Under the pieces are notes generated by a model. It had not been told where the DNA came from, searched no databases, and saw only the letters and a list, made by a program, of their open reading frames with translations. From Longimicrobiales bacterium (GTDB lineage Bacteria > Gemmatimonadota > Gemmatimonadetes > Longimicrobiales > Gaopeijiaceae), in assembly GCA_965238005.1 (NCBI GenBank), contig OZ250165.1:1856001-1920000 (forward strand): a DNA stretch of 64,000 bases, read 5' to 3'. A program made the translations under genes and the position numbers. Below, piece after piece: positions 14,189-60,570 of the stretch; within the stretch, counting starts at the first letter, position 1, and the number at the start of each line of letters is the position of its first letter.

Positions 14189-14916
14189 CCGACCCGACCG
14201 CACGCTTCCTCGTGGTCATCCCCACGTTCAACGAGGCGGACAACCTGCCGCGGATCGTGCCTCTCGTTCTGAATCAGGACCCCAGGATCGACGTGCTGGT
14301 GGTGGACGACGACTCGCCCGACGGCACCGGGGACCTGGCGGACGATCTGGCCGACGAGCTGGATCGGGTGCACGTCCTGCACCGGTCGGGTAAACAGGGG
14401 CTGGGGCGGGCCTATCTGGAGGCCTTCCGCTGGGGCCTGGACCGCGACTATACCCTCTTCTTCGAGATGGACGCCGACTTCTCCCACGAGCCCGACGCTT
14501 TGCCCGAGTTCATCGAGAAGGCGAAAGAGTTTGACGTCGTCCTCGGCTCGCGCTACGTCGACGGGCGCGTCACGGTCATCAACTGGCCCATGAGCCGCCT
14601 GCTCATCAGCTATTTCGGCAGCCGGTACGCCCGCATCGTCACGGGCCTCCCCGTCCGTGACGCTACGGGCGGCTTCAACTGCTGGCGGCGCGAAGTCCTG
14701 GAGGCTCTGGACTTCCATCGGATCGAGTCCAACGGATACACCTTTCAGATCGAGCTCAAGCTCCGAGCGTGGCGCCGGGGATTCTCCATGATCGAGATAC
14801 CGATCATCTTCGCCGAGCGCGATTCAGGGGAATCGAAGATGTCGAAGGAGATCGTTCGAGAGGCGATCTGGAAGGTCTGGCAGCTCCGCTTCCTGGACCT
14901 CTTCGGTCGGTTGTAG
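14185..14916 (+). CDS. Polyprenol monophosphomannose synthase (DPM1-like GT2)
   Basis: IPTFNEADN, VDDDSPDGTG, GLGRAY, EMDADFSH, DATGGF, GESKMS. Confidence 0.9.
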   Translation: MTDPTARFLVVIPTFNEADNLPRIVPLVLNQDPRIDVLVVDDDSPDGTGDLADDLADELDRVHVLHRSGKQGLGRAYLEAFRWGLDRDYTLFFEMDADFSHEPDALPEFIEKAKEFDVVLGSRYVDGRVTVINWPMSRLLISYFGSRYARIVTGLPVRDATGGFNCWRREVLEALDFHRIESNGYTFQIELKLRAWRRGFSMIEIPIIFAERDSGESKMSKEIVREAIWKVWQLRFLDLFGRL

Positions 14917-15324
14917 AAGGCTGTTGAGGAAGTACAGTGGGCCGCGCGACCCACGCCTTCCGGCGTGGGGGCCCCGCGCTTGCGCGCGTTCAGGCAAAGA
15001 GCGACGACGAGTCGTAGCCGAGCTACTGCGGGGAGGAGAGACGCAGGATTAACCGCGCGGGCACCGCGGCCGAAGGTTGTGGTCGCCCTGTGCCCAACAC
15101 AATGTCGATATGAACTTACATGTTCGTGGGTTGCGGTGGCACGCCCCCGACCACGCGTCGCGCGGTGCCCCCGTTGTTGGAGCTCCTAACCGTAGCGACG
15201 GCTATGGCGTCGTCGCTCCGACCCACGCTGTCGCGCGGGTACCCCGGATCTGGGGCCGTGGCATCCCGGGTACCCGTGCGGTAGCACGGGTGGCGGCCCG
15301 CTGTACTTCCTCAACAGCCTTCTA
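14914..15324. mobile_element. MITE-like element 1 (~410 bp) with 32-bp terminal inverted repeats
   Basis: TAGAAGGCTGTTGAGGAAGTACAGTGGGCCGC (14914-14945) vs reverse complement of 15293-15324, 1 mismatch; TA at both ends; no credible ORF. Confidence 0.85.
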
Positions 15325-15945
15325 GTGCCCATCCAGCACCTACTCTACCGCTGCCCTCGGTGCGGCCACGATCCGACGACGGCAACCGACGAGGGCGCCC
15401 AGTGCGACTCCTGTGGAACCTCGTTCGAGCAGGGAAGGGCCTCGGTCGTTCTCGTGCGCTCCGCCGACGGAGAGGTGGAAGAAGCCTCGGTCCGCGCTCT
15501 CATGGATGCCATCGACGGGCTGGGCGGGGCGTCGTCCAGGGCTTTGGACCACGGGGGTCGGCTGTCCTACGAGGCCCGCGTGGCCGTGGCCCACGGAGAT
15601 CACCACCAGGTCGTGTGGTGGAAGGGAAGGGTCCTGGGCTTCTTCGAGCGGCTCACAAAGCGCCGAGAGGCGACCCTCCGGCTCGACGGCGAAGACCTGA
15701 CCGTCACCTCGACGGGATGGGAGCCTCTCGTCTGGCCACTGGAGAGCATCCTGGCCATCCAAATCAGCTCCAAGGCCATTCAGCTCAACATCCGAGGTGT
15801 CGGGCTCTACCAGATGGAGTTTCTGAACGACTCCCCGAGGCGCTGGGAAGAGTTGCTGCAGGCGGCCATGCGCCGCTTTTACGCGAAGCTCGGCGAGGAA
15901 ATAGTAGAGTTTCAACCCAGAATCGTGACGAGGCCTTCATCGTGA
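15325..15945 (+). CDS. Hypothetical protein with CxxC...CxxC zinc ribbon, linked to the acyltransferase
   Basis: LYRCPRCG...CDSCG; operonic with the plsC-like gene. Confidence 0.65.
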   Translation: MPIQHLLYRCPRCGHDPTTATDEGAQCDSCGTSFEQGRASVVLVRSADGEVEEASVRALMDAIDGLGGASSRALDHGGRLSYEARVAVAHGDHHQVVWWKGRVLGFFERLTKRREATLRLDGEDLTVTSTGWEPLVWPLESILAIQISSKAIQLNIRGVGLYQMEFLNDSPRRWEELLQAAMRRFYAKLGEEIVEFQPRIVTRPSS

Positions 15946-15976
15946 CGATCCGCCGGCGCTCGACGGAGCGGCTTCC

Positions 15977-16606
15977 GTGATCGTCTACCGCGCCGCCCGC
16001 GCGATCGCGAAGGTCTACTTCAGGGCGATCACGAAGCTCCGGTTCGAGGGGACGGACAACCTGCCCAAGGAGGGGGAGTTCCTCCTGGTGACGAATCATC
16101 AGAGCAACCTCGACCCCTTACTCCTGCACACGTACTGCCCACGCCTCCTCTTCACCATGACTAAGAGCTCGGCGTTCCGGCACCGCGTCATGCGCTGGAT
16201 CGAACCCCGGGTGGGGGCGTTCCCCACGCGTCGCTATCAGGTGGATCCCCAGGCCGTTCGCGTCGCCCTTCGCTATCTCGAGGAGGGCAAGGCCGTTGGC
16301 GTCTTTCCGGAAGGGGAGCGTTCTTGGGACGCCAAGTTGCGGAGGCTGCGCCCCGGCGCCGTGCGCCTCCTCCTCAAGGCGGGCGTTCCGGTCATTCCCT
16401 GCGGCATCGTGGGCACATACGAGGTATGGCCACGCTGGGGAAGCATGAACTGGCTCAGGATCGGCCCGGGGCGGCCTCCGATCACGATTCGGTACGGCGA
16501 GCCGCTGCACTTCGGCAAGCACGACCATCGGGCGAGTCGTGAGGCAGCTCTTCCGGAGGCGACCAGAAGGGTCGAGGAAGCCCTCCTAGCCCTCATGACA
16601 CCATGA
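15977..16606 (+). CDS. Lysophospholipid acyltransferase (PlsC family)
   Basis: NHQSNLD (HX4D) and FPEGERS motifs. Confidence 0.9.
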   Translation: MIVYRAARAIAKVYFRAITKLRFEGTDNLPKEGEFLLVTNHQSNLDPLLLHTYCPRLLFTMTKSSAFRHRVMRWIEPRVGAFPTRRYQVDPQAVRVALRYLEEGKAVGVFPEGERSWDAKLRRLRPGAVRLLLKAGVPVIPCGIVGTYEVWPRWGSMNWLRIGPGRPPITIRYGEPLHFGKHDHRASREAALPEATRRVEEALLALMTP

Positions 16607-17099
16607 GCGAAGACCGGATCGGCCGGGAGTTCTACGACCGGACCGACCATTTCGAGGAGGGAACGGAGCACCTCAGGGATCTCGAGAGTCCGTTTCAGCG
16701 CTACCGCGTGGACAAGGTCCTCCAGATCTACGAACCGGGAAGGGAAGAGCGCGTTCTGGACCTCGGATGTGGATGGGGCACCTTCTGTTGGGCTCTGGCA
16801 CACCGCCTGCGGGAGATGGTCGGCCTGGACTTCAGCCAGAGGAGAGGAGCATCAACCTCTGCGAATCCGGGCTCGCCGCCTCGGGTCTGAAGAACGTCAC
16901 GTTCGTTTGCGCCGATGCTCGCGATACGGGCCTCGAGCCCGACAGCTTCCATCTCATCATCGCCGCCGACCTGATGGAGCACCTCTATCCCGACGACAGC
17001 CGGGCCGTGATCGCAGAAGCGCACAGGCTCCTGAAGAGGGCAGCGACTCGCATCCCCATGCTCCGGAGGCGCATGGCAGTCCTGGCTCGGAAGCCCTGA
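16603..17099 (+). pseudogene. Class I SAM-dependent methyltransferase, frameshifted and probably internally deleted
   Basis: VLDLGCGWG in one frame, ADARDTG...DLMEHL...RLLK in another; AGAGG duplicated at 16838-16847. Confidence 0.8.
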
Positions 17100-17191
17100 T
17101 CGTCGCACTTTGACGCACTGGAGGTCCGGTGGTCCCGCGGCAAGGTGCCGCAACGGCTCCGGCTTCGATGCTCCCTGCACGGAGGCTCGGC

Positions 17192-18925: not shown

Positions 18926-18958
18926 CGCCCGAAACGGAACCCACCAATGGAGGCCACC

Positions 18959-20137: not shown

Positions 20138-20198
20138 GGCGCCGTTGAAACGACCAATCTCCGGTGAGAGAGCTATGGGCTCTGGAGGTGGCCAAGGC

Positions 20199-21717: not shown

Positions 21718-21739
21718 CGTGACTATTCGACCTCGTTGT

Positions 21740-21782: not shown

Positions 21783-21786
21783 GCGG

Positions 21787-27095: not shown

Positions 27096-28047
27096 TGTTA
27101 GTCGAAAGGAGGGTACAGCCTACCCTGATCCTTTACACAATGGCCTACACTGATGGTTGACAGGTTCCTATCAACCAGGGTTCTGCAACTAGGAGAGCCC
27201 GATGCACTGGAACCGGTCGACCATGTACGAGCAAAGAGTACGCTTCATCCTCGAAGTGCAGCAACGGACATTCAGTTTCTGCGAGTCCTGTAGGCGTTAC
27301 GGCATCAGCAGGACCGCGGGATACACGTGGTGGAAACGGTTTCTCGTGGGAGGATTTGAAGGGCTCCACGACCGATCGCACCGACCCCATCACTGCCCGC
27401 ACGCTATAGCGGATCCGATCGTCGAACACATCGTGGATCTGCGTCAGCGCTACGGATGGGGATCACGCAAGATCCGCAAACTCACAGCCGAGAGGTTCGG
27501 CCGGGCCCCAGCTCGCAGGACGATCGACCGCATTTTCGAGCGTCACGACCTGATCACGAAGAAGCGCAGACGCTCCGGCAAACCGGGCCATCCCGGCAAG
27601 CCGCTCACTCCCATGGATGAGCCCAATGCGGTCTGGACCGTCGACTTCAAGGGCCAGTTCAAGATGCGCAACGGCCGCTACTGCTATCCCCTCACCATCC
27701 AGGACGGCTGCAGCCGATTCCTGCTCGAGTGCAGAGGGCTGTACTCCACGTCGATCGAGCTCGCAAAGCCTGTCTTCATCAGGACTTTCCGCGAGTTCGG
27801 CCTTCCCGCCGTCATCCGCTCCGACAACGGTACGCCCTTCGCTTCCATCGGCCTCGCTCGGCTCACACGTCTCAGCGCTTGGTGGATCCGTCTCGGCATC
27901 CGGCCTGAGACCATCGAGCCTGGAAAGCCGCAGCAGAACGGCCGACACGAGCGTATGCACCGAACCCTCAAGCGCGAAGCTACTCGCCCGCCGAAGGCCA
28001 ACCTCAGCGCGCAGCAGCGCCACTTCAACGACTTCCTCCACATCTTC
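27096..28047 (+). mobile_element. IS481-family element, left part (interrupted by IS3)
   Basis: Begins TGTTAGTCG at 27096 (end inferred from the TGT terminus); transposase follows; right end absent. Confidence 0.75.
27202..28047 (+). pseudogene. IS481-family transposase, 3' truncated
   Basis: HTH (CRRYGISRTAGYTW), WTVDFKG, RSDNGTPF, PGKPQQNGRHERMHRTLK. Confidence 0.9.
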
Positions 28048-28171
28048 TGGAGCTGTCCCGTTTCAGTGGACGGGTGAACACTGAGGTTTATAGTCTGTCC
28101 CCCTCGCTGGGGAGAGGAAAGCTTCCCCCGCGCAGCGGGGGAGTAAAGGGCAACTTGGCCACGCAGGTTTC

Positions 28172-29023
28172 TCATGCTGCCGCTCCGTGGCGACGCTCGA
28201 AGTTGATGGGCGACAGCTGACCCAGTGCCGAGTGTCGCCTCCGGGGGTTGTAGAAGCCCTCGATGAAGTCGAACACGGCCATCTTCGCCTCGGCCTGGGT
28301 CCGGAAGCGCTGCCGGTCGAGTAGCTCGCACTCGAGCGTCGCGAAGAAGCTCTCGCACATCGCGTTGTCGTAGGCGTCGCCCACGGAGCCCATCGAGGGC
28401 CGCACACCGACATCGTTGCAGCGTAGGCCGAAGGCGATCGAGGTGTACTGGGTTCCCTGATCACTGTGATGGATGACGCATTCGGGCCGGCGCTGCCAGG
28501 TCGCCATGTTCAGCGCGTCCAGGACGAGCTCGGTGCGCAGGTGCGTAGCCATCGACCACCCGACCACCCGCCTGCTCCAGACGTCGAGCACAACCGCGAG
28601 GTACAAGAACCCCGCCCAGGTCGGGATGTAGGTGATGTCGGCCACCCACAACTGGTCTGGCCCGTCTGCGCTGAAGTCCCGCTCGATGAGATCCGGCGCG
28701 GGACGGGCGTCCTCGTTGCGCCTGGTCGTCTTCGGGCCGCGCCGCCTCCGGCTAGCTCCCACAATCTCGGCCTGCTTCATGAGCCGGCCCACCCGCTTCT
28801 CACCGACCCGCTCGCCAGCTTCCTTGAGGTCCGCGTAGATGCGGGGCCGGCCATAGACCCTTCGGTTCTCGCGCCAGACCGTCTCGATCCGCTCTGTGAG
28901 CTCCTCATCTCGCTTCGCCCGAGCCGAAGGCTCGCGATCCAACCAGGCGTAGTAGCCGCTGGGGGAGAGATCCAGCACACGGCACATCGCCCGCACAGGG
29001 AAGTCGGCCTGATTCGTCTTCAT
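28172..29023 (-). CDS. IS3 transposase OrfB (DDE integrase core)
   Basis: WVADITY, HHSDQGTQY, DNAMCESFF. Confidence 0.95.
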   Translation of the reverse strand: MKTNQADFPVRAMCRVLDLSPSGYYAWLDREPSARAKRDEELTERIETVWRENRRVYGRPRIYADLKEAGERVGEKRVGRLMKQAEIVGASRRRRGPKTTRRNEDARPAPDLIERDFSADGPDQLWVADITYIPTWAGFLYLAVVLDVWSRRVVGWSMATHLRTELVLDALNMATWQRRPECVIHHSDQGTQYTSIAFGLRCNDVGVRPSMGSVGDAYDNAMCESFFATLECELLDRQRFRTQAEAKMAVFDFIEGFYNPRRRHSALGQLSPINFERRHGAAA

Positions 29024-29334
29024 GAACTCGAACCCCGTTCCGGGATCGAGTTGCTCTCCCGAGCAAACCAGGCGGCGGCTTTTTTTAGAATCTCCTGCTC
29101 CATGCGCAGACGCTTGTTGTCACGCCGAAGCTGCCTGAGTTCCCCACGCTCCTCCGTCGTCAGCCCGTCACTGCGACGGCCTTCATCCAAGTCAGCTTGT
29201 TTGACCCAGTTCCGTATCGCCCCGTTTGAGGGCTCGAACTCCCGGGCCAGCTCCTCCACGGAGCGGCCCGACCTGACCAACTCGACCATCTGCCGCCGAA
29301 ACTCCGGCGGGTACGGCGCATGTGTTCTTGGCAT
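29020..29334 (-). CDS. IS3 transposase OrfA, with -1 frameshift motif A7G at 29079-29086
   Basis: YPPEFRRQMV HTH, EILKKAAAWFA; AAAAAAAG slippery site on the minus strand. Confidence 0.95.
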   Translation of the reverse strand: MPRTHAPYPPEFRRQMVELVRSGRSVEELAREFEPSNGAIRNWVKQADLDEGRRSDGLTTEERGELRQLRRDNKRLRMEQEILKKAAAWFARESNSIPERGSSS

Positions 29335-29392
29335 CGTGGACTCCTCCTGTCTCCCTCACTACTGAGGTGTCCACCAAAGCGGGTCAACTCCA

Positions 29393-30782
29393 AGTGCTGG
29401 GTGCCGCCCCTCTCTTGGCCCTCGTGGGCGGGGCGTTGTTCGCGGTCCACCCCGTGCACTCCGAAGCCATCGCAAACGGGGTGGGACGAGGCGACGCCCT
29501 CATGACGCTCTTCATCCTCCTAGGGGTCCTGGCATACCTCCGGCCCTGGCGAGCGGAGTGGATGCGTGTGGCTCTGGTGGCGGCCGCGTATGCACTCGCT
29601 TTAGGCTCCAAGGAGAACGGCGTGGTCCTGCCTGTGCTTCTCATCGCCGTCACGTTCCTCGCGCTGGGGTCGGCGGTGGGAGCTTCACCCACGCCGGACT
29701 CGGCGGTGGGAGCTTCACCCACGCCGGACTCGGCGGTGGGGGCTTCACCCGCCTCGAATTCGGGATCGGTCGGGTCCACCGACTCGCCGCCCCACCGTCC
29801 CCTGCTCTTCCAGTGGCCCCTCTTCCTGGCTCTGGCCACCGTCCTCGCGGGGTACCTCGCGGTTCGCCACCAGGTACTCGGCACGCTCATCCACCGGGAC
29901 GCCGCCCCCTACATCGTCATTCTTCCGGCGTCGCTACGGATGACGACGGCGGTGGCTAACGTGATCGAGCTGGCCCGGCTGCTCCTCGTGCCCAACGACC
30001 TCGCCGCCGACTACGGACCCGACGTGATCGTGCCGGCAGCCATATCTTCGATGCGGTTCTGGGGCGGCCTGGCTGTGGTGGTTGGGTTGGTCGCCCTGGG
30101 GGCGCTGAGCCTCCGCCGCGGGAAGTGGATCGCCCTGGGGGTCGCATGGACCGTATTGGCCATCGCCGTGGTCGGGAACCTGGTCTTTCCGGTGGGCGTC
30201 TGGGTGGCCGAGCGCACACTCTATCTCCCCTCCGTCGGCGTGTCCTTCCTCGCTATCGGCGCCTGGCATCGGTTGGGACTCGGAGCGCCCAAACGCGTCC
30301 AGTCCACGTTCCTCACGGGTATGGCCGTGTTGGTTCTGCTCGGCGGAGCACGGACCTGGACCAGAAACGCGGCGTGGGCCAGCACCGAGGCCGTCTTTCT
30401 GACCCTCGCCGAGGAGCATCCCGAGTCGTACCGGGCCCAGTGGTGGATGGGTCAGACGCTGGTAGACGCCGGACAATTCGACCGAGGTCTCGAGTGGCTG
30501 CGTCAGGCCGGCGATCTGAACCCCAACGAGCTCAGGGTCCAGCTCGACTACGTCCGAGGGCTTCTCCTGGCGGGACGCTCGGAGCAGGCCCTATCGGTCG
30601 TGTCCGATCTTCCGCCCTTCGATCCGGCCCGCGACGTGTACCTGACTCAGAGCCACATCCAGCTGAACCAGCTCGACGAGGCGCAGGCCGCCGTTCGCGC
30701 GGGGTTGTCCCGTTTCCCGGCGGACTCGAGGCTGAGGCGTCAGGCCCAGGAGCTCGGAGTGGAGCCGGACGGAGATCCATAG
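29393..30782 (+). pseudogene. TMTC/DUF1736-like membrane protein with C-terminal TPRs, 5' truncated at IS3
   Basis: LFAVHPVHSEAIA..VGRGD, ALGSKE, LAADY, AERTLYLPSVG, RN..W motifs; no native start. Confidence 0.8.
29670..29750 (+). repeat. 30-bp in-frame tandem repeat x2.7 (SAVGASPTPD)
   Basis: TCGGCGGTGGGAGCTTCACCCACGCCGGAC repeated. Confidence 0.92.
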
Positions 30783-30884: not shown

Positions 30885-30983
30885 CCTGACATTATAGTAT
30901 CACAACTTAGTATCGCTGCTGCATCAGAGCATGTGTCCCTCAACTCCTATGTGGAGGAGCGGCTCAAGGAGATTGTGGGCTAG
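30885..30983 (+). pseudogene. Possible C-terminal remnant of a HicB/RHH antitoxin
   Basis: LSIAAASEHVSLNSYVEERLKEIVG*, AT-richer DNA, no start. Confidence 0.45.
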
Positions 30984-32584
30984 GAGTCTGCGCCGCAGAA
31001 GCACAGCTGACTGAGCCGAATGGTCATCGAGCCGTCCGCGGCGAGGCGGATCCGGGTGATTGGGAGGTTGAGGACTTGTGTCTGCGACGGATCGGGAGAG
31101 CGGAATGGATGCGTTGGGGGGGCAAGAGAGCTACGAGAGCCCTCGCGCCGGCAGATGCGGGTGAACCCTCGTGCAGTCATGCCGCCTGAAGGGTGTGCAG
31201 CCGCTTCACATTGAGTGCCAGGCACACGAGGGTCCACTCGGCCCGGACCTTCTCGAGGCCCCGGAAGCTGAATCGTCGAAAGCCCATCACTTCCTTGATC
31301 CAGCCGATGGGCGCCTCGGCCTGCGACTTTCGCCGTGCGTAGCGTCTGCGGCCATCTTCGCTCGCCAGCTTCTCCGCCATGCGGACTTTCGCCGGATATT
31401 CCTCCTTGTCAACCGTGGGGGCGGCCTTACCCTCCCGGGCCAGCGCCACATACCCGTCGATGTCTCGCTCTTCCAGTTCCTCGAGATCCCGCTCGTTGCA
31501 ATAGCCCGTGTCCGCCAGCACCTGCGCCGGCGTCTCGCCGTACGCTTGCGCCACCGCGTCGACCATGGGCACCAGCTGGCCCTGGTCGCTCGCGTTGTCC
31601 GTCACCTCGGCCCCGACCACCAGCTGGTTCTCCCCCTCCACGACCGTCTGTGCGTTGTAGCACTGCTGGAACCCCTCCGAACTCGTCTTCATGATCCGGC
31701 TCTCAGGGTCCGTGAAGTTGCTCTGCGCCGCCTCGTCCGGCTCTCCGTACTCCCGCTTGTAGGGCCTGCCGCCCTTCGGGTTGCGCGTCTGCCCCGGCTT
31801 GCGGCCCCGTGCGTCGTCCGCCGCTCTCTGCTCGGCTTCCAGGCGCGCCTTCGCCTCCCGGATCGCCGCCAGCCGGTCCTCGCGCCGCTTGAGCTCCTCC
31901 GGCACCTCGTCTCCGCATGCTTCCTCGCCGTAGCGCTCGTCTTCCGCTTCGTCCACCGCCTCGGCCCTCTCCAACAGCCCCCGGATCTCCGCCTCCAGCC
32001 GAGGCTCCCCGGTCACCATCCGGCCGTAGCTCATCGCCTTGCGCTTGTTCGCGTTCGCCCGAACCTTCGTCCCGTCCACCGACACCCTGCCAAGCCCCGC
32101 CAGCCCCAAGGCCCGCGCGAGCATCACCACCTCCACAAACACCGCCCGGAAATCCCCGAGATGGCGCTTGCGGAACTCGCACAGCGTCCGGTGCTTCGGG
32201 AAGTTCTCCGCCGCCAGCATCCGAAACGCGACATCCTCCTCCAGCTTCCTCGCCATCTTCCGCGACGAGAAGGTGCCCGTCGCATACGCGTAGATCAGCA
32301 CCTTGACCATCATCCGAGGGTCGTACGGCGAGTTGCGCCGCCCGTCCCCCCGGTACCGCCCGTAGAACGCGCTCAGCTCCACCGCGTCCACCAGGTCGCT
32401 CACATGGTGCGCCAAATGACCCTCCGACACCCACTCCCGAAGATCCGGAGGCAGCAACAACATCTGCTCCGGATCGTACGGTCGAAATGTCGTTCCCATT
32501 CACCCCCCTCGGTGATCCGCAAGCCTTCCCAATGCCTTCGCTACCACCAAAGATAGCCGCCGCAGGGTTCTGCGGCGCAGACTC
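30984..32584 (-). mobile_element. IS1182-family element with 17-bp perfect TIRs and CTAG target duplication
   Basis: GAGTCTGCGCCGCAGAA (30984-31000) / TTCTGCGGCGCAGACTC (32568-32584); CTAG at 30980 and 32585. Confidence 0.93.
31177..32499 (-). CDS. IS1182-family transposase
   Basis: Q.LLLPP.L, YDPRMMVKVLIYAY, VDGTKVRANA, TDPESRIMK, YNAQ, LADTGY, RRFSFRGL. Confidence 0.93.
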   Translation of the reverse strand: MGTTFRPYDPEQMLLLPPDLREWVSEGHLAHHVSDLVDAVELSAFYGRYRGDGRRNSPYDPRMMVKVLIYAYATGTFSSRKMARKLEEDVAFRMLAAENFPKHRTLCEFRKRHLGDFRAVFVEVVMLARALGLAGLGRVSVDGTKVRANANKRKAMSYGRMVTGEPRLEAEIRGLLERAEAVDEAEDERYGEEACGDEVPEELKRREDRLAAIREAKARLEAEQRAADDARGRKPGQTRNPKGGRPYKREYGEPDEAAQSNFTDPESRIMKTSSEGFQQCYNAQTVVEGENQLVVGAEVTDNASDQGQLVPMVDAVAQAYGETPAQVLADTGYCNERDLEELEERDIDGYVALAREGKAAPTVDKEEYPAKVRMAEKLASEDGRRRYARRKSQAEAPIGWIKEVMGFRRFSFRGLEKVRAEWTLVCLALNVKRLHTLQAA

Positions 32585-32604
32585 CTAGGTCTTTCTCGAA
32601 GCCC

Positions 32605-42047: not shown

Positions 42048-42469
42048 GCGCGGAGCCCCCGGCGCCCCGCGAAGGAGTAGAAGACGGCGACCATGACTCC
42101 GAACACCGTCGTCAGGACGCCCAGCTCCACCAGAAGGATACCCCGGTGCTGGCCGTGCTCCGGCTCGTGGGCGAGTACGCCGTAGTCAAGGAATTCGCCA
42201 CCGAGCAACACGGTGACCACTCCTACGCCGGCGTAGATCAGGACGCCAGCGGCGCCGCAGAACCACGCCACCGATAAGGGCAGGACCTCCCTGGCCATAT
42301 CCACGCCGAAGATGAGGCTGTAGAGGATGAAGCCCGCGGCGAAGATGACGCCGGCCTGGAAACCACCGCCCGGCCCGTATTCGCCGTGGAACTGCACGTA
42401 CAGGGCGAAGAGCAGGATGAAGGGGATGAGGATCTTGGCGCCGACCCGCAGGATGACCTTATCCTCCAT
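42044..42469 (-). CDS. mrpB: Cation/H+ antiporter subunit B
   Basis: HGEYGPGGGFQAG; start at MEDKVILR (42469). Confidence 0.9.
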   Translation of the reverse strand: MEDKVILRVGAKILIPFILLFALYVQFHGEYGPGGGFQAGVIFAAGFILYSLIFGVDMAREVLPLSVAWFCGAAGVLIYAGVGVVTVLLGGEFLDYGVLAHEPEHGQHRGILLVELGVLTTVFGVMVAVFYSFAGRRGLRA

Positions 42470-43136
42470 GGTCACCTCGCTCGCTCGGGTCTTCCTCGCT
42501 CGGGTCTTCCTCGCTCGGGTCTTCCTCGCTCGGAGCTTTCTCGCTCGGAGCTTGCTCGCCCGGACCATCCGCCGAAGGCCCGCCAACCAAACGCTCCTCT
42601 TCCGACCATTCTCTTCTGCGTACCTGGGCCATGAGCAGGAGCACACCCACCATGGCGGTGAAGATCACCGTGGTCTCCCCCATGGTGTCGTAGCCCCGAT
42701 AGCTGGCCAGGACCGACGTCACCACGTTGGGCACGCCGATCTCGTGGCCTGACTCCTCCAGGTAGTAGTCGGCCACGTGGTGGTGGACGGGATTCGCAGG
42801 GTCTCCGTACGGAGGCATATCCAGGGTGCCGTAGACGAGCGCGCCGCCCGTCACGAGCACGACGAACAGGGGCAGAAGAGCGGGTCTGGACGGGCCCTTC
42901 GAGGTGTGCCCCACCAGCGCCATGCATCCGAGCATGAGGACCGTGGAGATCCCTGCACCCACCGACGCCTCGGTGAAGGCCACGTCCACGGCGTCCATGA
43001 CCGTGAAGAGGGCCGCCGACAGGAGGCTGAAGATGCCCGCCAGCATCGCCACGGCAAACAGGTTCCTGAGCTTCAAGAGCGCCAGCGCCGTCACCGCCAG
43101 CATGACCAGGAGGAAGACGTCGACCAGGACTTCTAT
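42459..43136 (-). CDS. DUF4040 / MnhB N-terminal-like Mrp subunit
   Basis: DAVDVAFTEASVGAG, NVVTSVLASYRGYDTMGE; in-frame ATA at 43136 behind an RBS (next ATG at 43103). Confidence 0.85.
   Translation of the reverse strand: MEVLVDVFLLVMLAVTALALLKLRNLFAVAMLAGIFSLLSAALFTVMDAVDVAFTEASVGAGISTVLMLGCMALVGHTSKGPSRPALLPLFVVLVTGGALVYGTLDMPPYGDPANPVHHHVADYYLEESGHEIGVPNVVTSVLASYRGYDTMGETTVIFTAMVGVLLLMAQVRRREWSEEERLVGGPSADGPGEQAPSEKAPSEEDPSEEDPSEEDPSERGDHGG
42480..42559. repeat. 15-bp tandem repeat x5.3 encoding an acidic tail (PSEED/PSEKA)
   Basis: CTCGCTCGGGTCTTC x3 plus CTCGCTCGGAGCTT(T/G) x2. Confidence 0.92.
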
Positions 43137-49369: not shown

Positions 49370-49469
49370 ACGGCACAATCCTGGCATCGCGGCACAGTCT
49401 CGGTAGCAAGAAGGGGCTCCGGCCTGGTTCACACTGAACCGCCGGAGCCCCTAAGTCGTTGCCGCTCAG
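49370..49469. repeat. 100-bp direct repeat, copy A
   Basis: 94/100 identical to 51038-51137 by manual alignment; contains a 12-bp stem AGGGGCTCCGGC/GCCGGAGCCCCT. Confidence 0.93.
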
Positions 49470-51037: not shown

Positions 51038-51137
51038 ACGGCACAATCCTCACAACGCGGCACAGTCCCGGTAGCAAGCAGGGGCTCCGGCCCGGTTCAC
51101 ACTGAACCGCCGGAGCCCCTAAGTCGTTGCCGCTCAG
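51038..51137. repeat. 100-bp direct repeat, copy B (13 nt from the selC 3' end)
   Basis: See copy A. Confidence 0.93.
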
Positions 51138-51518: not shown

Positions 51519-52529
51519 ATGGTCTCCACACGCTCCAGAGAACAGGCCACGCCCGCCACGACCGAGCCGGCCCCGATTCGGGGCGCCCGGAATCCCGGCA
51601 CACCGTTCGAGCCGGAGTGGGTTCGGGAGGTCCGCGTCAACCGGAGCGCGGTGGAGCGACGGGCCGCCACCCTGGGCACCCGTCGCAGCGTGAAGAAGGA
51701 GTGGCAGGCGGCTTGGCTCCTCAAGGCGGTCTCGTGCATAGATCTCACCACGCTCGCCGGAGACGACACTCCCGGACGCGTGCGCAGGTTGTGCGCGAAA
51801 GCTCGCCAGCCGGTCCGACAGGATATTCTCGAGGGCCTCGGTGTCGGATCTCTCGGTCTTACCACCGGCGCGGTCTGTGTCTACCACACCATGGTCGAGA
51901 CAGCCGTCCAGGCCTTGCAGGGATCCGGCATCCCCGTCGCTGCGGTGTCCACCGGCTTCCCGGCCGGGCTGAGCCCGTTCGCCCAGCGGGTCGCCGAGAT
52001 CGGCGCTTCGGTGGCCGCGGGTGCAGCCGAGATCGACATCGTCATCACACGGGCCCACGTTCTCGCGGGCGACTGGGAGGCCCTCTACGACGAGGTGAGG
52101 ACCTTCCGGGAAGCGTGCGGGCCGGCACACCTGAAGACGATCCTCGCGACAGGCGAGCTGGGCACGCTGCGGAACGTCTACCGGGCCAGCCTGGTGTGCA
52201 TGATGGCGGGCGCCGACTTCGTGAAGACGTCCACAGGCAAGGAGCCGACCAACGCCACGCTCCCCGTGGGACTCACCATGGCGCGCTCCATCCGGGAGTA
52301 CGGCGAGCGGACCGGTTATCAGGTCGGCTTCAAGCCCGCCGGTGGGATCCGGAAGGCAAAGGAGGCCCTCATCTGGCTGATCCTCATGAAGGAGGAGCTG
52401 GGCAACGCCTGGGTGGAACCGGACCTCTTCCGCTTCGGCGTCAGCTCGCTCCTGGGCGACATCGAGCGCCAGCTCGAGCATCATCTGACCGGACGGTACT
52501 CGGCGGCGCATCGACACCCCCTAGCATGA
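51519..52529 (+). CDS. deoC: Deoxyribose-phosphate aldolase
   Basis: IDLTTL.GDDT, AVCVY, GFPAG, EIDIVI, LKTIL.TGEL, FVKTSTGK, GFKPAGG. Confidence 0.95.
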   Translation: MVSTRSREQATPATTEPAPIRGARNPGTPFEPEWVREVRVNRSAVERRAATLGTRRSVKKEWQAAWLLKAVSCIDLTTLAGDDTPGRVRRLCAKARQPVRQDILEGLGVGSLGLTTGAVCVYHTMVETAVQALQGSGIPVAAVSTGFPAGLSPFAQRVAEIGASVAAGAAEIDIVITRAHVLAGDWEALYDEVRTFREACGPAHLKTILATGELGTLRNVYRASLVCMMAGADFVKTSTGKEPTNATLPVGLTMARSIREYGERTGYQVGFKPAGGIRKAKEALIWLILMKEELGNAWVEPDLFRFGVSSLLGDIERQLEHHLTGRYSAAHRHPLA

Positions 52530-52685
52530 TACTGGGGCCGTTCAACTGGGATGCAGGGGTAGGAGCTCAAGGAGCCCCGCCGAGGAGTACCAGACGGTAC
52601 TTCGCAGGCGGGGCGACGCGGAGCGACACCCGGGTACCCGCGCCGCTATGGCGTGGGTGGCGCCCAGTTCAACGGCCCGACCATA
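52530..52685. mobile_element. MITE-like element 2 (~155 bp)
   Basis: GGGCCGTTCAACTGGG (52535-52550) / CCCAGTTCAACGGCCC (52663-52678), 15/16 inverted match; TA at both flanks; fills the deoC-ALDH gap. Confidence 0.7.
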
Positions 52686-52686
52686 G

Positions 52687-55122: not shown

Positions 55123-55154
55123 CCCGGGGCGGTCTCGCACCGCCACAGTACGCC

Positions 55155-55719: not shown

Positions 55720-55913
55720 CAGCTCATGTCCATCAGCGGGCCCTCTTGCTGCGTGATGATCTTCTCCGCTTCGATGGGCTCCATGTCAATCGAGCGTAGA
55801 AGCTCCTTCAGCCTCACCAGATCCTGTTGGACGATCAGCGTCAGCTGTTCGAGCTCCAGGTTCAGCTTTGCGGAGAGCATTTCGAAGATGCTTCCCCAGC
55901 CGGCCCAGGTCAT
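55719..55913 (-). pseudogene. Short coiled-coil ORF, probably the C-terminal remnant of a larger protein
   Basis: IFEMLSAKLNLELEQL...LKELLRSIDMEPI; abuts IS3. Confidence 0.4.
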
Positions 55914-56042
55914 GCCTCTGGAGCTGTCCCGTTTCAGTGGACGGGTGAACACTGAGGTTTATAGTCTGTCCCCCTCGCTGGGGAGAGGAAAGCTTCCCCC
56001 GCGCAGCGGGGGAGTAAAGGGCAACTTGGCCACGCAGGTTTC

Positions 56043-56894
56043 TCATGCTGCCGCTCCGTGGCGACGCTCGAAGTTGATGGGCGACAGCTGACCCAGTGCC
56101 GAGTGTCGCCTCCGGGGGTTGTAGAAGCCCTCGATGAAGTCGAACACGGCCATCTTCGCCTCGGCCTGGGTCCGGAAGCGCTGCCGGTCGAGTAGCTCGC
56201 ACTCGAGCGTCGCGAAGAAGCTCTCGCACATCGCGTTGTCGTAGGCGTCGCCCACGGAGCCCATCGAGGGCCGCACACCGACATCGTTGCAGCGTAGGCC
56301 GAAGGCGATCGAGGTGTACTGGGTTCCCTGATCACTGTGATGGATGACGCATTCGGGCCGGCGCTGCCAGGTCGCCATGTTCAGCGCGTCCAGGACGAGC
56401 TCGGTGCGCAGGTGCGTAGCCATCGACCACCCGACCACCCGCCTGCTCCAGACGTCGAGCACAACCGCGAGGTACAAGAACCCCGCCCAGGTCGGGATGT
56501 AGGTGATGTCGGCCACCCACAACTGGTCTGGCCCGTCTGCGCTGAAGTCCCGCTCGATGAGATCCGGCGCGGGACGGGCGTCCTCGTTGCGCCTGGTCGT
56601 CTTCGGGCCGCGCCGCCTCCGGCTAGCTCCCACAATCTCGGCCTGCTTCATGAGCCGGCCCACCCGCTTCTCACCGACCCGCTCGCCAGCTTCCTTGAGG
56701 TCCGCGTAGATGCGGGGCCGGCCATAGACCCTTCGGTTCTCGCGCCAGACCGTCTCGATCCGCTCTGTGAGCTCCTCATCTCGCTTCGCCCGAGCCGAAG
56801 GCTCGCGATCCAACCAGGCGTAGTAGCCGCTGGGGGAGAGATCCAGCACACGGCACATCGCCCGCACAGGGAAGTCGGCCTGATTCGTCTTCAT
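56043..56894 (-). CDS. IS3 transposase OrfB
   Basis: Translation identical to 28172-29023. Confidence 0.95.
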   Translation of the reverse strand: MKTNQADFPVRAMCRVLDLSPSGYYAWLDREPSARAKRDEELTERIETVWRENRRVYGRPRIYADLKEAGERVGEKRVGRLMKQAEIVGASRRRRGPKTTRRNEDARPAPDLIERDFSADGPDQLWVADITYIPTWAGFLYLAVVLDVWSRRVVGWSMATHLRTELVLDALNMATWQRRPECVIHHSDQGTQYTSIAFGLRCNDVGVRPSMGSVGDAYDNAMCESFFATLECELLDRQRFRTQAEAKMAVFDFIEGFYNPRRRHSALGQLSPINFERRHGAAA

Positions 56895-57205
56895 GAACTC
56901 GAACCCCGTTCCGGGATCGAGTTGCTCTCCCGAGCAAACCAGGCGGCGGCTTTTTTTAGAATCTCCTGCTCCATGCGCAGACGCTTGTTGTCACGCCGAA
57001 GCTGCCTGAGTTCCCCACGCTCCTCCGTCGTCAGCCCGTCACTGCGACGGCCTTCATCCAAGTCAGCTTGTTTGACCCAGTTCCGTATCGCCCCGTTTGA
57101 GGGCTCGAACTCCCGGGCCAGCTCCTCCACGGAGCGGCCCGACCTGACCAACTCGACCATCTGCCGCCGAAACTCCGGCGGGTACGGCGCATGTGTTCTT
57201 GGCAT
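56891..57205 (-). CDS. IS3 transposase OrfA (A7G frameshift site at 56950-56957)
   Basis: Translation identical to 29020-29334. Confidence 0.95.
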   Translation of the reverse strand: MPRTHAPYPPEFRRQMVELVRSGRSVEELAREFEPSNGAIRNWVKQADLDEGRRSDGLTTEERGELRQLRRDNKRLRMEQEILKKAAAWFARESNSIPERGSSS

Positions 57206-57264
57206 CGTGGACTCCTCCTGTCTCCCTCACTACTGAGGTGTCCACCAAAGCGGGTCAACTCCAC

Positions 57265-57651
57265 TCAGCCCCTTCGGGCGATCACGTCGATCTCCACATC
57301 CACGGCCTTCGGGAGGCCCGCGGCCTGTACCGTCGCCCGGGCCGGCCGGTGATTACCGAAGTGCTCGGCGTACACGGCGTTCATCTCCGTAAACGTGCCC
57401 ATGTCGGCCAGGTAGACGGTGGTCTTCACCACGTTGCTCAGGGAGCTGCCCGCCTCGCGGAGCACCGCAGCGAGGTTGCTCAAGACCTGTTGGGTCTGGG
57501 CGGCCACGTCCCCGTCGATCAACTCGCCCGTCGCGGGGTCGATGGGTATCTGTCCCGAAGCGAACACCCACTCGTCGACGACCACCGCCTGTGAGTACGG
57601 GCCTATGGCCTCGGGGGCGTCGGGGGTGTGGATCATCTTCAAGTCACTCAT
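57265..57651 (-). CDS. ridA: RidA family enamine/imine deaminase
   Basis: APEAIGPYSQA, SGQIP, VVKTTVYL, F..MN.VY, PARATV, VEID. Confidence 0.93.
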   Translation of the reverse strand: MSDLKMIHTPDAPEAIGPYSQAVVVDEWVFASGQIPIDPATGELIDGDVAAQTQQVLSNLAAVLREAGSSLSNVVKTTVYLADMGTFTEMNAVYAEHFGNHRPARATVQAAGLPKAVDVEIDVIARRG

Positions 57652-57724
57652 CGGATCATCGTCAAGTTATTCATCCGGTAACACCCCCTAACGAGTTGTC
57701 GTGAATATATTTAGACAGTTTCGT

Positions 57725-58717
57725 TCACCCGGCGAAGGTCTCCTCGGCGTGAGCGAGAATCTCGGACGGGATCACCGTCGCCACACCCGCCTTCGCCACC
57801 TCGAGGGCCGCCGCGTGGTTGGCCAAGATAGCGGATTCCAGCGCCGTCCCGCCTGCCGCCAGACACACGCCGAGAACCGCCGTCACCGTGTCCCCGGCCC
57901 CGGAAACGTCGTACACCGAGCGCGCCGAGGTCGGCAGGAGTACTGTCTCGGCTCCCTCCGAGTGAAGCGCCATGCCCTGCTCGCCCAAAGTGAGCAGAAG
58001 ATGGTGGCACGCCAGGCGGTCCCGAACCGCCTCCATCCAGGTCGCGTCGTAGGGCCGCAGAGGTTCGCCCAGGGCGTCCTCCAGCTCCTTGGCGTTGGGC
58101 TTGAACACCGTGACGCCCGGATACTCGAAGAAGCGCTGGCGCTTCGGGTCCACGACGGATGGGATGTCCGACTCTGCGGCGGCAGTCACGACCGCCGTCA
58201 CCACCGAAGGCACCAGGACGCCTTTGTTGTAGTCCTGTATCGCGACGGCCGAGCATGCGCTCGACAGCCTGCGGGCCGCCTCCGCCAGCCGGTCCGCCGT
58301 CTCCTCATCGATGTCGCCGACCTGCTCACGGTCCACCCGGACGACCTGCTGATGGCGGGCCATGACCCGCGTCTTCACGGTCGTGGGACGCTGCGGGGCC
58401 GCCACGAGCCCATCGAGGTCGACGCCCAGCTCCGCCAGCTCGCCTCTGAGCTCCCGGCCCGCCTCGTCGACGCCCACACAGCCCACTACGGCGCACCCGG
58501 CCCCCAGCGCCACCACGTTCGCGGCGACGTTGGCCGCGCCTCCCACAGCCGACGAGTCTTCCTCGACGTGCACCACCGGGACCGGGGCCTCGGGCGAGAT
58601 GCGCGCCACCCGACCCGAGATGTACCGATCCAGCATCACGTCGCCCACCACCAGGACCCGGACGTCCCGGGCCATCTCCAGGAGCTCGGCTATGCGGTCA
58701 ACGCCGAGTCGGTTCAA
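57725..58717 (-). CDS. rfaE1: D-glycero-beta-D-manno-heptose-7-phosphate kinase
   Basis: VVGDVMLDRY, RISPEAPVPV, GGAANVA, DYNKG, DVSGAGDTV; TTG start overlaps the upstream stop. Confidence 0.92.
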   Translation of the reverse strand: MNRLGVDRIAELLEMARDVRVLVVGDVMLDRYISGRVARISPEAPVPVVHVEEDSSAVGGAANVAANVVALGAGCAVVGCVGVDEAGRELRGELAELGVDLDGLVAAPQRPTTVKTRVMARHQQVVRVDREQVGDIDEETADRLAEAARRLSSACSAVAIQDYNKGVLVPSVVTAVVTAAAESDIPSVVDPKRQRFFEYPGVTVFKPNAKELEDALGEPLRPYDATWMEAVRDRLACHHLLLTLGEQGMALHSEGAETVLLPTSARSVYDVSGAGDTVTAVLGVCLAAGGTALESAILANHAAALEVAKAGVATVIPSEILAHAEETFAG

Positions 58718-59850
58718 GTCGCCTGCTCCGCCGCCATCGGTTTGGCGGCGGCGCTGAACGGCTGCCGTCCCCGGGCCTCGAGGGGCCAGCGCTCCAGCGC
58801 TCCGTCGACCAGGACCAGTAGCTCGTCCTGAAGATTCACGGACACGCACACGTGGTTGGGGAGCACTCGAACCAGCTCTCCCACCTCGGGACGCCAGTCG
58901 CTCCTGTTGAGGTCGAGGACGCCGTGCTCCTCCGAGACTGCCTTGAGGACCACTTCGGGGTGGTCCAGGAGAACACCGAACCCCTCATCCCCTCCCCTGC
59001 CCTCCTTCGCCAGGGCTTTGGAGCCCGCGTCGATGACGGCCTGGCCCCGTATCGACGTGCTCACCACCGTGGCCAGGACCGTGTAGGCCATGTCCTCGGA
59101 ATCGGCGACACCGATGGTGAGACCCTCTCGATCGAAGAAGATGGCCGTCCCGCTCCGGATCTCCGTGAGACCCGGCAGCTCGTGGCTGCGCCACAGGGTC
59201 GGCGTGGAGCCACCGCTCACCACCTCCGGTGACAGCCCCGCCCCCTCCAGAGCCTCGTAGAGCTCCCGGAGGTCGGAAGCCAGGACCTCGAGCTCGGCGT
59301 CCTGCCCATCCTGGGGTCCACGGATGTGGCCCGGGTAGAACATGAGCCCCACATACTCGACCCCCTCGAAGTCCCGAACCCGGCTTGCCAGACGGACGGC
59401 ATCTTCTTTGGTCTCCAGGCCCACACGGTTCATGCCCAGGTCGACTTCCACCAGAATCCTGACGGATCGTCCCGCTCGCCGAGCCGCGGCGGCCACGGCC
59501 CTCAGGGCCGCCTCCGAGTCGAGCCCCACGGAGAGCCGCACACGCTCCGGTATGGCCATGACCCGATCCAGCTTCGAGTCCCCCATGACGGGATAGGCCA
59601 GAAGCAGGTCGTCGCACACCGTGGACATGACCTCCGCCTCCCGGGGCGTGGCCACCGTCAGGCCCTGTACTCCGGCCTCGACTTGGAGGCGGGCCAGACG
59701 GGTGCACTTGTGCGTCTTGATGTGGGGACACCACGAAATGTCGTGCTCACGGCAGTAGGCGACTACCCGCTCAAGATTGGCCCTGACCTTGGCGAGGTCG
59801 GCGACCCCGACCGGGGTCTCGACGGCTGCCAACGAGGAATGAACGGACAT
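58714..59850 (-). CDS. Fold-type III PLP enzyme, D-serine dehydratase / D-threonine aldolase (DSD1) family
   Basis: PHIKTHK, SGGSTPT, DAGSKAL, SEEHG, PNHVC. Confidence 0.88.
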   Translation of the reverse strand: MSVHSSLAAVETPVGVADLAKVRANLERVVAYCREHDISWCPHIKTHKCTRLARLQVEAGVQGLTVATPREAEVMSTVCDDLLLAYPVMGDSKLDRVMAIPERVRLSVGLDSEAALRAVAAAARRAGRSVRILVEVDLGMNRVGLETKEDAVRLASRVRDFEGVEYVGLMFYPGHIRGPQDGQDAELEVLASDLRELYEALEGAGLSPEVVSGGSTPTLWRSHELPGLTEIRSGTAIFFDREGLTIGVADSEDMAYTVLATVVSTSIRGQAVIDAGSKALAKEGRGGDEGFGVLLDHPEVVLKAVSEEHGVLDLNRSDWRPEVGELVRVLPNHVCVSVNLQDELLVLVDGALERWPLEARGRQPFSAAAKPMAAEQAT

Positions 59851-59871
59851 AGGCGTCGCCCGGAACCCCTC

Positions 59872-60053
59872 AGTGTCCCGTTGCCAAAGTGTCTCGGCCA
59901 GTCGAGGGCACGGTGCATCCGTGGGCTCGGCGTTGGGACTCCTTACGACCACGCTTCGCGCGGTGCCCGCTTGCGCTACGCCGCGTCGTCCCGCCTTGAT
60001 CCCACGGCGCCCCGACCCTCTTGGTGGCTCGCGAACTTCGGCAACGGAACACT
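59872..60053. mobile_element. MITE-like element 3 (~180 bp)
   Basis: AGTGTCCCGTTGCCAAAGT (59872-59890) / ACTTCGGCAACGGAACACT (60035-60053), 17/19 inverted match; right end overlaps the TlpA stop (CTAG). Confidence 0.78.
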
Positions 60054-60570
60054 AGTGAAGGGCATCCTCCAGGGCGGCCAGGAACTCGGGGTCGTCCTCG
60101 ATGATCGGGCCGAGCCGAGCGAACAGGATCATTCCCTCTGCGTCGATGAGGAATGAGGCCGGCAGCCCGATGGCGGCGAAGACGTCGGTGGAGACCATGT
60201 CCGGATCGAGAAGGATGTCGTAGGTGACGCCCTTGTCGGCCAGGAACTGCCCCACCGCGTCCAGGGAAGCCCTGGAGTCCACCGAGACTCCGACGATCTT
60301 GAGCCCCCGCTCCTGATGCTCCTCGTAGACCGACTCCAGGTAGGGTATCTCGAAGCGGCAGGGCCCACACCAGGTGGCCCACAGATTCACCAGGACCGGA
60401 CTGCCTCGGAAATCGGCCAACGACACCGTCTTGCCGTCTTCCAGGGCTATGGCCTCGAAGTCCGGAGCCTGGTCGCCTACCCGGGGGGGACGAAGGTCCG
60501 CACCAGCACCGATACACGCCGTGACGAACAGGAGGAGGGCCAGCCGGGCGCCTCGATACAGTACGCTCAT
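60052..60570 (-). CDS. TlpA/ResA-family thiol-disulfide oxidoreductase lipoprotein
   Basis: Lipobox VTAC, APDF, VNLWATWCGPC..E.P. Confidence 0.92.
   Translation of the reverse strand: MSVLYRGARLALLLFVTACIGAGADLRPPRVGDQAPDFEAIALEDGKTVSLADFRGSPVLVNLWATWCGPCRFEIPYLESVYEEHQERGLKIVGVSVDSRASLDAVGQFLADKGVTYDILLDPDMVSTDVFAAIGLPASFLIDAEGMILFARLGPIIEDDPEFLAALEDALH

Follow-up and report, generated by a model that had tools for sequence, protein, structure and literature searches.

Three TIR-bounded elements at gene ends

The window, a 64,000-nucleotide stretch of contig OZ250165.1 from a Longimicrobiales bacterium (the source genome, G000), contains three elements designated E1, E2, and E3, each adjoining the stop codon of a gene:

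14185..14916, + strand: glycosyltransferase family 2 gene; its TAG stop (14914-14916) is the E1 target
14914..15324, no strand assigned: E1, a MITE with IS1182/IS5-type TIRs, two inverted half-units, two cores, and five micro-inserts; TA at both ends
51519..52529, + strand: deoC, encoding DeoC aldolase; TGA stop at 52527-52529, just ahead of E2
52535..52678, + strand: E2, a MITE of low copy number whose TIRs are of a third type; follows the deoC stop and precedes an aldehyde dehydrogenase start
59871..60054, - strand: E3, a 180-bp IS630-type MITE that folds as a single long hairpin; the genome has about 57 such TIR pairs
60052..60570, - strand: AhpC/TSA-family redoxin gene; its TAG stop (60052-60054, - strand) overlaps the end of E3

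The earlier note on this DNA described three noncoding elements with unrelated TIRs and common internal modules, and named further genomic copies and empty sites in relatives as checks. All three elements are present at the positions that it gave. The arms of E1 (14914-14945 and 15293-15324) match at 31/32 positions and form the strongest inverted repeat in the window; those of E2 (52535-52550 and 52663-52678, read from the sequence) match at 15/16 and those of E3 at 17/21. The ends are indeed unrelated between elements, with only 7 to 11 of 20 positions in common at the best offset. E1, E2, and E3 are MITEs because they are short, noncoding, and bounded by TIRs. E3 and E1 are also multicopy, as MITEs are, with 57 and 9 TIR pairs in the genome, respectively. 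E2 is nearly single copy and had no true empty site among the genomes compared. Folding z-scores were -11.8 for E1 and -7.8 for E2 (as RNA) and -4.95 for E3 (as DNA).

Both same-genus genomes (G001 and G002) have an empty E1 site, and a contig of run X2, which skips the 409 nt of E1, represents another. In the same-genus genomes, E3 lacks the core and E2 is deleted or altered. E1 is flanked by TA on both sides, and CTA/TAG is found at 38 of 72 IS630-type copies. No clean or consistent target duplication was found at three further E1-class loci.

A hairpin core common to elements with different ends

The covariance model for a shared core, core C, located four copies in the three elements:

14994..15050, + strand: core C, copy 1 of E1; long hairpin with tandem G·A pairs
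15168..15226, - strand: core C, copy 2 of E1
52563..52625, + strand: core C of E2
59924..60003, - strand: core C of E3, interrupted by micro-insert H

This result bears out the suggestion that E1, E2, and E3 have a core in common; both E1 copies and the E2 copy were included in the training of the model, and the E3 copy was left out. Core C is a hairpin of about 60 nt with 91 copies in the genome at E<0.01, compared with none in an order-5 Markov simulation. The covariation sought in the earlier note was also found: 52 cells were changed on both sides versus 19.7 after shuffling (0/500), with at most 14 in slid controls, counts that ignore relatedness and that concern a structure itself traced by eye from these sequences. 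In most of the nonstandard cells, tandem GA/AG occupies the register at which other copies have Watson-Crick pairs. Because tandem G·A pairs are stable in RNA too, the chemistry of core C may be that of DNA or of RNA.

The core model matched 20 of 141 Gemmatimonadota genomes and 25 of 101 genomes of another phylum, and in both phyla core C sits centrally in TIR-bounded hairpins with many end types. The core is most likely preserved for its fold, serving the persistence of the element itself through a long but interrupted stem, rather than for host regulation. A shared core challenges the view of the MITE interior as inert filler from a parent IS. No match to a sigma-70 promoter or terminator was found in E1, and no recurrent gene was found beside clustered cores in three genomes whose ORFs were read by eye (G399, G423, and G387). 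Kink-turn and HDV-ribozyme readings of the elements were weighed by eye and dropped, and a permissive regular expression for the core was discarded for poor specificity (114 matches versus 45 simulated).

Transposase families that match the ends

E3 has IS630-like TIRs and a TA target, and an intact IS630 with E3-class ends is present at locus L137 (NF033545, 283 bits, cut-off 100). In the source genome IS630 is present as fragments, with no intact copy found. E1-class ends lie directly ahead of IS1182/IS5-like transposases at loci L181 and L182, whose ORFs are both cut by the locus end, score 256 and 270 for IS1182 (cut-off 270), and pass the IS5_4 cut-off; the assignment of the E1 TIRs as IS1182/IS5-like was made via these two loci. 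Transposase genes with matching ends, which the earlier note proposed looking for, were found for both classes. An IS701-type DDE_5 transposase was considered as the origin of the E3 ends and rejected because it had no match in the source genome and IS630 fits instead. A candidate autonomous element in G002 (L184) proved to be a MITE interrupted by another IS.

The idea of a structured cargo associated with different transposases holds insofar as the core occurs in nonautonomous elements whose ends match different families; its other part, mobilization in trans, is the presumed mechanism. DDE transposases would mobilize E1 to E3, with an IS630 enzyme acting on E3 and an IS1182/IS5-like enzyme on E1, and the elements would land at TA/CTAG. 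The MITE bodies probably derive from an ancient long-hairpin element that had core C at its tip, the ends having been exchanged between transposase families. Exchange probably occurs because elements insert into one another's TAG-bearing ends and recombine across short common words. The swappable ends that had been suggested are supported by one chimeric copy (G000:2334079), in which an E1-class left end is joined to an E3 body, and, in an unquantified comparison by eye, by bodies that are nearly identical although their ends differ.

Stop codons and operon mRNA

Each element adjoins a stop codon as had been noted: TAG of the glycosyltransferase gene for E1, TGA of deoC for E2, and TAG of the AhpC/TSA-family gene for E3. 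Landing at TA/CTAG would often place an element at a TAG stop codon in this 65% GC genome, and the association mostly reflects TAG targeting. The earlier note proposed instead that the elements might tune operon mRNA processing. Co-option by the host for this purpose would have precedent in ERIC and Correia elements (PMC2229807, PMC3184786). It would also be consistent with the overlap of stop codons by 38 of 72 IS630-type MITEs, a higher proportion than among autonomous IS1182 copies (13 of 43; p=0.02) or nondisruptive unique CTAG sites (358 of 1687), counts based on gene calls from a crude custom script. However, the effect of ERIC on mRNA is described as dependent on orientation (PMC2229807), and the elements here had no orientation bias (13 sense versus 20 antisense). 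Furthermore, E1-class MITEs showed no excess at stop codons (4/14), and all three sites are empty, truncated, or altered in the same-genus genomes, with E1 absent, E3 coreless, and E2 deleted or altered. The mRNA-tuning proposal was not upheld, and we regard host co-option as very unlikely.

A micro-insert within the elements

Seven stretches of E1 to E3 were recognized as copies of a short insert, micro-insert H:

14948..14974, - strand: degenerate micro-insert (P-type) in E1; empty form seen in other E1-family copies
15059..15084, + strand: micro-insert H in E1, 26 nt; replaces 4 nt
15149..15170, - strand: micro-insert H in E1, 22 nt; replaces 4 nt
15220..15244, - strand: micro-insert H (P-type) in E1, 25 nt
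15268..15292, + strand: micro-insert H (P-type) in E1, 25 nt
52632..52659, + strand: micro-insert H (P-type) in E2, 28 nt; the orthologous E2 of G002 (L017) lacks it
59947..59968, - strand: micro-insert H in E3, 22 nt; replaces 4 nt of the inner stem of the core

The near identity (22/23) of the hairpins at 15148-15170 and 59946-59968 was confirmed. The two small hairpin modules described previously are present, not as separate original modules but as members of one insert family that is secondary to the elements. The hairpin module has 150 matches in the genome compared with 36 in the control. Each unit is 22 to 28 nt long and consists of an unpaired GGGY tag, a stem, and a GNA triloop. The loops are mostly C-GNA-G, with all four bases occurring at N, and G·T wobbles are found on the GNA strand. 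C-GNA-G is a loop pattern known for stable DNA mini-hairpins.

An empty counterpart was found for 38 of 105 site clusters, with a replaced length of 4 nt at 21, 5 nt at 9, 3 nt at 5, and other lengths at 3, some of the 38 matches being loose or spurious. Similarly, 3 to 5 nt were replaced at 13 of 17 metagenome sites. The micro-insert replaces host bases without duplication, the replaced bases have no common sequence, and both ends of the unit are fixed. Among E3-type cores, 33 copies have the micro-insert in the inner stem and 10 do not, and the micro-insert of E2 is present in the source genome and absent from the ortholog in G002. The direction of change is insertion because the insert breaks the inner stem of the core, IS91 reading frames, and tRNA genes.

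Targets in at least four phyla include MITEs, IS91, IS3, and IS110 genes, REP-like repeats, tRNA arrays, and the insert itself. An identical 22-mer was found in four phyla. Nested and clustered inserts are common, single IS91-like remnants hold four or five copies, and both orientations occur within one gene. In the source genome 101 of 104 copies lie within repeats that comprise 16% of the genome. This enrichment overstates targeting because the copies there, which form 25 site clusters, were mostly inherited with their MITE. Nor is the insert limited to mobile DNA, as it was also found in ordinary ORFs at L237 and L320. Three insert-bearing Planctomycetota genomes yielded no core C, which indicates that the core and insert layers are separable.

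Possible routes of insert movement

These features are probably the product of two nested selfish layers, MITEs with a shared core and, in addition, a copied insert of 22 to 28 nt. The unit of GGGY tag, stem, and GNA triloop would be copied into new sites with the removal of about 4 target bases. The most likely route would be cutting and joining of single-stranded DNA by an HUH-type enzyme that recognizes the tag and hairpin, as for REPs. Within this two-layer explanation, an IS91-family Y2 transposase is the leading candidate enzyme, a tentative identification that is somewhat more apt to be wrong than right. No intact candidate enzyme was found in the source genome, which yielded four partial Y2 matches and no Y1 match. 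We know of no HUH transposase that deletes 4 target bases, and rolling-circle substrates include neither IS630/IS1182 MITEs nor tRNA arrays.

A broader interpretation, possible but doubtful, is that some dedicated enzyme excises four bases from single-stranded DNA and puts a fixed tag-plus-hairpin in their place, with a bias toward mobile and structured DNA (IS genes, MITEs, REP-like repeats, and tRNA arrays) and possibly disabling its targets. Separately, core C would be a cross-phylum module with its own binding partner, hitchhiking on an active transposase by end swapping. Programmable short replacement on single-stranded DNA, if true, would be of biotechnological interest.

Movement of the insert via RNA, by reverse transcription or RNA-templated repair, with core C as a structured RNA, is unlikely. 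Such a route has reportedly been proposed for the SDR elements of Nostoc, and it would fit the frequency of tRNA genes among the targets and the strong folding of the elements as RNA. A Geobacter relative of the core is annotated as a predicted short RNA (PMC2700814). However, C-G-closed GNA triloops are generally known as a DNA-type feature, a single gene can hold inserts of opposite orientation, and no Rfam match was found for E1 to E3 in searches of the whole window, of E1 at E<=1, and of 14 loci at E<=0.1.

It is also conceivable that no dedicated enzyme is involved and that a polymerase stalls on a hairpin-rich template, switches to a mini-hairpin copy close by, and, having copied that, resumes a few bases downstream. 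Targets that are structured or already have a copy, the prevalence of nesting and clustering, and the failure of searches of the source genome and its relatives to find an enzyme are consistent with such template switching. The fixed unit ends, the narrow loss of 3 to 5 nt, the lack of a common sequence in the replaced bases, and the occurrence of the same 22-mer across four phyla are not, and make this explanation quite unlikely.

The REPIN-like system suggested in the earlier note, driven by a RAYT (Y1) transposase, is the least probable and can hardly be expected to apply. An unpaired tetranucleotide tag with a hairpin is the layout of REPs (PMC3733652), and E1 is an inverted doublet. Yet the tag is GGGY rather than GTAG or CGTC, and the elements have IS-type TIRs. 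Furthermore, no Y1/RAYT match was found in eight Gemmatimonadota carriers (G000, G001, G002, G003, G005, G011, G177, and G101), and 12 Y1 loci in three other carriers had neither core nor insert at distances up to 1.5 kb.

How bacterial repeats of about 20 nt spread has long been an open question. The precise signature of the micro-insert (fixed ends, about 4 nt replaced, and no duplication), together with filled/empty pairs that number in the dozens and a candidate class of enzyme, makes this question testable.

Relation to known elements

IS630-associated MITEs (RUP of pneumococcus) and other hairpin MITEs such as ERIC and Correia/NEMIS are, as described (PMC2229807), likewise noncoding and TIR bounded, with a TA target, long terminal pairing, and IS630-matching ends, and often lie beside gene ends. 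Unlike these hairpin MITEs, E1 to E3 share one covarying core across unrelated transposase families and phyla. A 2024 census found about 97 to 98% of MITE clusters to be confined to a genus at 95% identity, and shared cores fall outside the tests that it describes (10.1101/2024.01.18.576219). Neither shared MITE cores nor micro-insert H was found described in the literature covered, a scope that leaves most subscription journals and ISfinder outside.

The Geobacter metallireducens elements Gmet_R1001-R1024, published in 2009 as "predicted short RNA elements" (PMC2700814), share with core C its inner palindrome and, on the opposite strand, its flanking signature, in a comparison by eye. They are intergenic and multicopy, were also reported in other Desulfobacterota, and are described as a regulatory RNA whose function was unknown; the passages of PMC2700814 on them do not mention TIRs, transposases, or other phyla. 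The shared core offers a new reading of this family. Among viral contigs, two matches to the Geobacter palindrome fit only the inner stem of the core model and were set aside, and five matches to the E3-class TIR all lacked a partner end; the core, the micro-insert, the E1 TIR, and the E2-type end had no match in these contigs.

The SDR elements of Nostoc, reportedly described by Elhai et al. in 2008, are said to be 21 to 27 nt long, with a hairpin kept by compensatory changes, to lie in minitransposons, to nest within themselves, and to have no known enzyme. Micro-insert H has a similar size and the same compensated hairpin, nesting, and minitransposon hosts. It differs in occurring in noncyanobacterial phyla and, reportedly, in sequence. 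According to a citing paper, SDR5 inserts precisely in HIP1, whereas micro-insert H takes the place of about 4 nt at targets that share no consensus.

GTAG/CGTC REPs and the REPINs associated with RAYT (PMC3733652, PMC3116915) resemble micro-insert H in having an unpaired 5' tetranucleotide with a short stem-loop and, as described, in being able to lie in frame within genes. In contrast to REPINs, which form extragenic doublets, micro-insert H lands inside other elements, including REP-like repeats, with a different tag and no RAYT in the eight carriers.

Replichore counts (36/91 and 52/120) were uninformative because the GC skew is irregular. By disrupting or lengthening transposase and tRNA genes, the inserts affect the annotation of Gemmatimonadota and Planctomycetota genomes.

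Three MITEs and transposases matching two of them

The window contains three non-coding elements bounded by TIRs:

14914-15324, element E1
52535-52678, element E2
59871-60054, element E3

The proposal in the earlier note that these elements combine unrelated TIRs with common internal modules was confirmed in full at the sequence level in the window. The genome is a single 4.84-Mb contig, 65% GC and repeat-rich, in which BLASTn recovered 93 matches to E1, 6 to E2, and 155 to E3, each including the element itself. A pairing search yielded 9 TIR pairs of the E1 class (elements with the same type of TIR as E1), 1 of E2, and 57 of the E3 class, a few of the last being spurious. Among named records, the same element families elsewhere were mostly in those titled Gemmatimonadota or Longimicrobiales. 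A search of Rfam for a known RNA family returned zero matches to the elements. The phenomenon is real and extends further than previously noted.

The anatomy of E1 to E3 demonstrates that they are MITEs. The E1 locus is empty in both same-genus genomes (G001 and G002), and a contig from sequencing run X2 jumps over 409 nt at this site, consistent with TA duplication. At three further E1-class sites compared with empty orthologues a clean duplication was absent, and a fourth site was filled in the relative. Both relatives carry a 61-bp internally deleted version at the E3 locus. At the E2 locus, the copy in G002 lacks the small hairpin, and in G001 the right end alone remains. Solitary E1-class ends are numerous genome-wide, and internal deletions of 61, 87, and 125 bp take out the core described below, so the long hairpins are often subject to decay.

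The search for autonomous elements with matching ends was successful for two classes. An intact IS630 element at locus L137 is bounded by E3-class ends; the window's own genome has only fragments of IS630. Of 121 genomes belonging to the family, 49 have E1-class ends, and at L181 and L182 these ends lie directly ahead of IS1182/IS5-like transposases. A transposase family to match the E2 ends was looked for and not found. The MITEs would be mobilized in trans. An intact IS1182-family element (NF033551; window 30980-32588; ca. 44 copies in the genome), whose ends bear a loose likeness to E1-class ends, is flanked on both sides by CTAG in 42 of 43 copies.

A covarying core under different ends

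With small hairpins masked before the profile was built and searched, core C, a hairpin of ca. 60 nt common to E1 to E3, was found 91 times in the genome at E<0.01, versus 0 in simulated DNA, within elements of several TIR types. Its pairs covary: among 27 insert-free cores (of 54, after removal of near-duplicates and misaligned rows), 52 cells of a hand-drawn structure of 16 pairs were changed on both sides, versus 19.7 after shuffling (0/500) and at most 14 with the structure slid, in a count that ignores relatedness. The outer helix is 62% Watson-Crick, and nearly all of its other cells are tandem G·A/A·G, aligned with normal pairs of other copies; these tandems occupy columns 20-21 in 12 of 27 cores and columns 23-24 in 21 to 22 of 27.

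The core model matched 20 of 141 Gemmatimonadota genomes, 25 of 101 genomes in the phylum of G365 (titled Myxococcota), and one Eisenbacteria genome, and did not match three Planctomycetota genomes. In most of the 28 loci inspected, a long TIR-bounded hairpin has the core at its tip, and more than 10 end types surround it as judged by eye, with further ones in additional loci. The core was not found in the window's IS1182 or in partial sequences of four IS1182-like elements. One copy in the genome is a chimera with an E3 body under an E1-class left end, and bodies at L373, L374, and L378 resemble, by eye, the IS630-type MITE of L137 lengthwise under different ends. These sequence comparisons indicate that ends have probably been exchanged between element classes, via nesting at TAG ends. 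Core-C MITEs also form exact head-to-tail arrays with a 174-bp period (L371, L372, and L373, in G177, G108, and G101) and 98-bp arrays (G399).

A micro-insert that replaces about 4 nt

The hairpin modules reported earlier are present; rather than two separate modules, both belong to one family. This micro-insert of 22 to 28 nt consists of GGGY, a stem starting ACC and closing GGT, usually a C-GNA-G loop, and then C/G; the stem varies in length and sequence with pairing retained. Among the E3 matches listed (46 of 52 rows), 33 copies have the micro-insert and 10 lack it, and it occupies the place of 4 nt in the inner stem of the core. Across the genome and a set of collected loci, 292 matches formed 105 site clusters, and an empty counterpart existed for 38 of these clusters, some matches being loose; the replaced length was 4 nt at 21 sites, 5 at 9, 3 at 5, and other at 3. 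An independent metagenome set comprised 53 sites; of 17 among them, 13 had 3 to 5 nt replaced. The replaced bases have no consensus and the sites no duplication. This result demonstrates that the micro-insert enters by insertion with ca. 4 nt replaced.

Within the genome, 101 of 104 copies are in repeats (25 site clusters). The pattern matched 43 times in G001 and 15 times in G002; in distant relatives most single matches are at chance level. Records titled Gemmatimonadota, Planctomycetota, Eisenbacteria, and Myxococcota were among the matches listed for the exact 22-mer (at least 100), and a 24-nt variant had 123 matches in 116 metagenome contexts. Contexts include IS91-family genes (up to 4 to 5 per remnant, both orientations), IS3- and IS110-type genes, tRNA arrays (tRNA genes in 9 of 11 loci tested), and, by eye, REP-like repeats and the micro-insert itself; a few ordinary ORFs carry it as well (L237 and L320). 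Dense tRNA arrays with the micro-insert occur at L071 (2501-2522; 35 tRNA genes in 5 kb), L235, L266, L270, L339, and L352, where it breaks single tRNA genes at anticodon, variable, or T arms. The IS91-like gene tails at L035 and L089 also contain micro-inserts with a GNA triloop whose sequence differs, which suggests that several micro-insert families exist. E1-class elements at L365 (G002:C10) and at G000:2121394-2121746 (G000 being the window's genome) contain other types of small insert: within core C, a tag-plus-GAA hairpin that has diverged, and also a two-stem module of greater length. At one orthologous site, G000 and G002 carry different E1-class variants.

GNA triloops are a feature of DNA mini-hairpins. 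Together with the REP-like tag-plus-hairpin layout, they point to a candidate enzyme of the HUH type, which would place the micro-insert by cutting and joining ssDNA. The suggestion of a REPIN/RAYT system was not borne out, Y1/RAYT being absent from the 8 Gemmatimonadota carriers searched; traces of HUH transposases in the genome were four partial Y2 matches only.

Stop codons and core orientation

The adjacency to stop codons seen earlier holds. CTAG is ca. fourfold under-represented. Overlap with a stop codon was seen for 38 of 72 IS630-type MITEs, compared with 13 of 43 copies of the autonomous IS1182 (p=0.02), 4 of 14 E1-class MITEs, and 21% of non-disruptive unique CTAG sites. Target choice and survival account for much of the overlap, leaving a modest excess on crude gene calls. 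Cores have no orientation bias (13 sense and 20 antisense). The core is probably retained for the benefit of the element itself.

Relation to known repeats

Nostoc SDRs are a known kind of small repeat. So are MITEs, RUP, and ERIC (PMC2229807, PMC3184786) and REPs and REPINs (PMC3733652, PMC3116915), with Nostoc SDR5 treated in PMC4390886; these cover the kinds found here. In the part of the literature covered, no description was found of a core common to several TIR families or of the GGGY micro-insert. PMC2700814 describes, as predicted short RNAs, a Geobacter family whose inner palindrome and flanking signature match those of core C by eye. The occurrence of the core across phyla and the replacement rule of the micro-insert are the surprising, testable parts.

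Other features of the window

ca. 28040-29390 and ca. 55910-57260, near-identical IS3-family pair (rve, HTH_21), ca. 18 copies in the genome
51155-51247, minus strand, tRNA-Sec gene (Rfam RF01852)
49370-49469 and 51038-51137, 100-nt non-coding copies, 94% identical, with a terminator-like hairpin, each directly 3' of a gene, the second adjoining tRNA-Sec
29662-29763 and 42465-42584, tandem repeats of 30 nt and 15 nt, respectively, within ORFs
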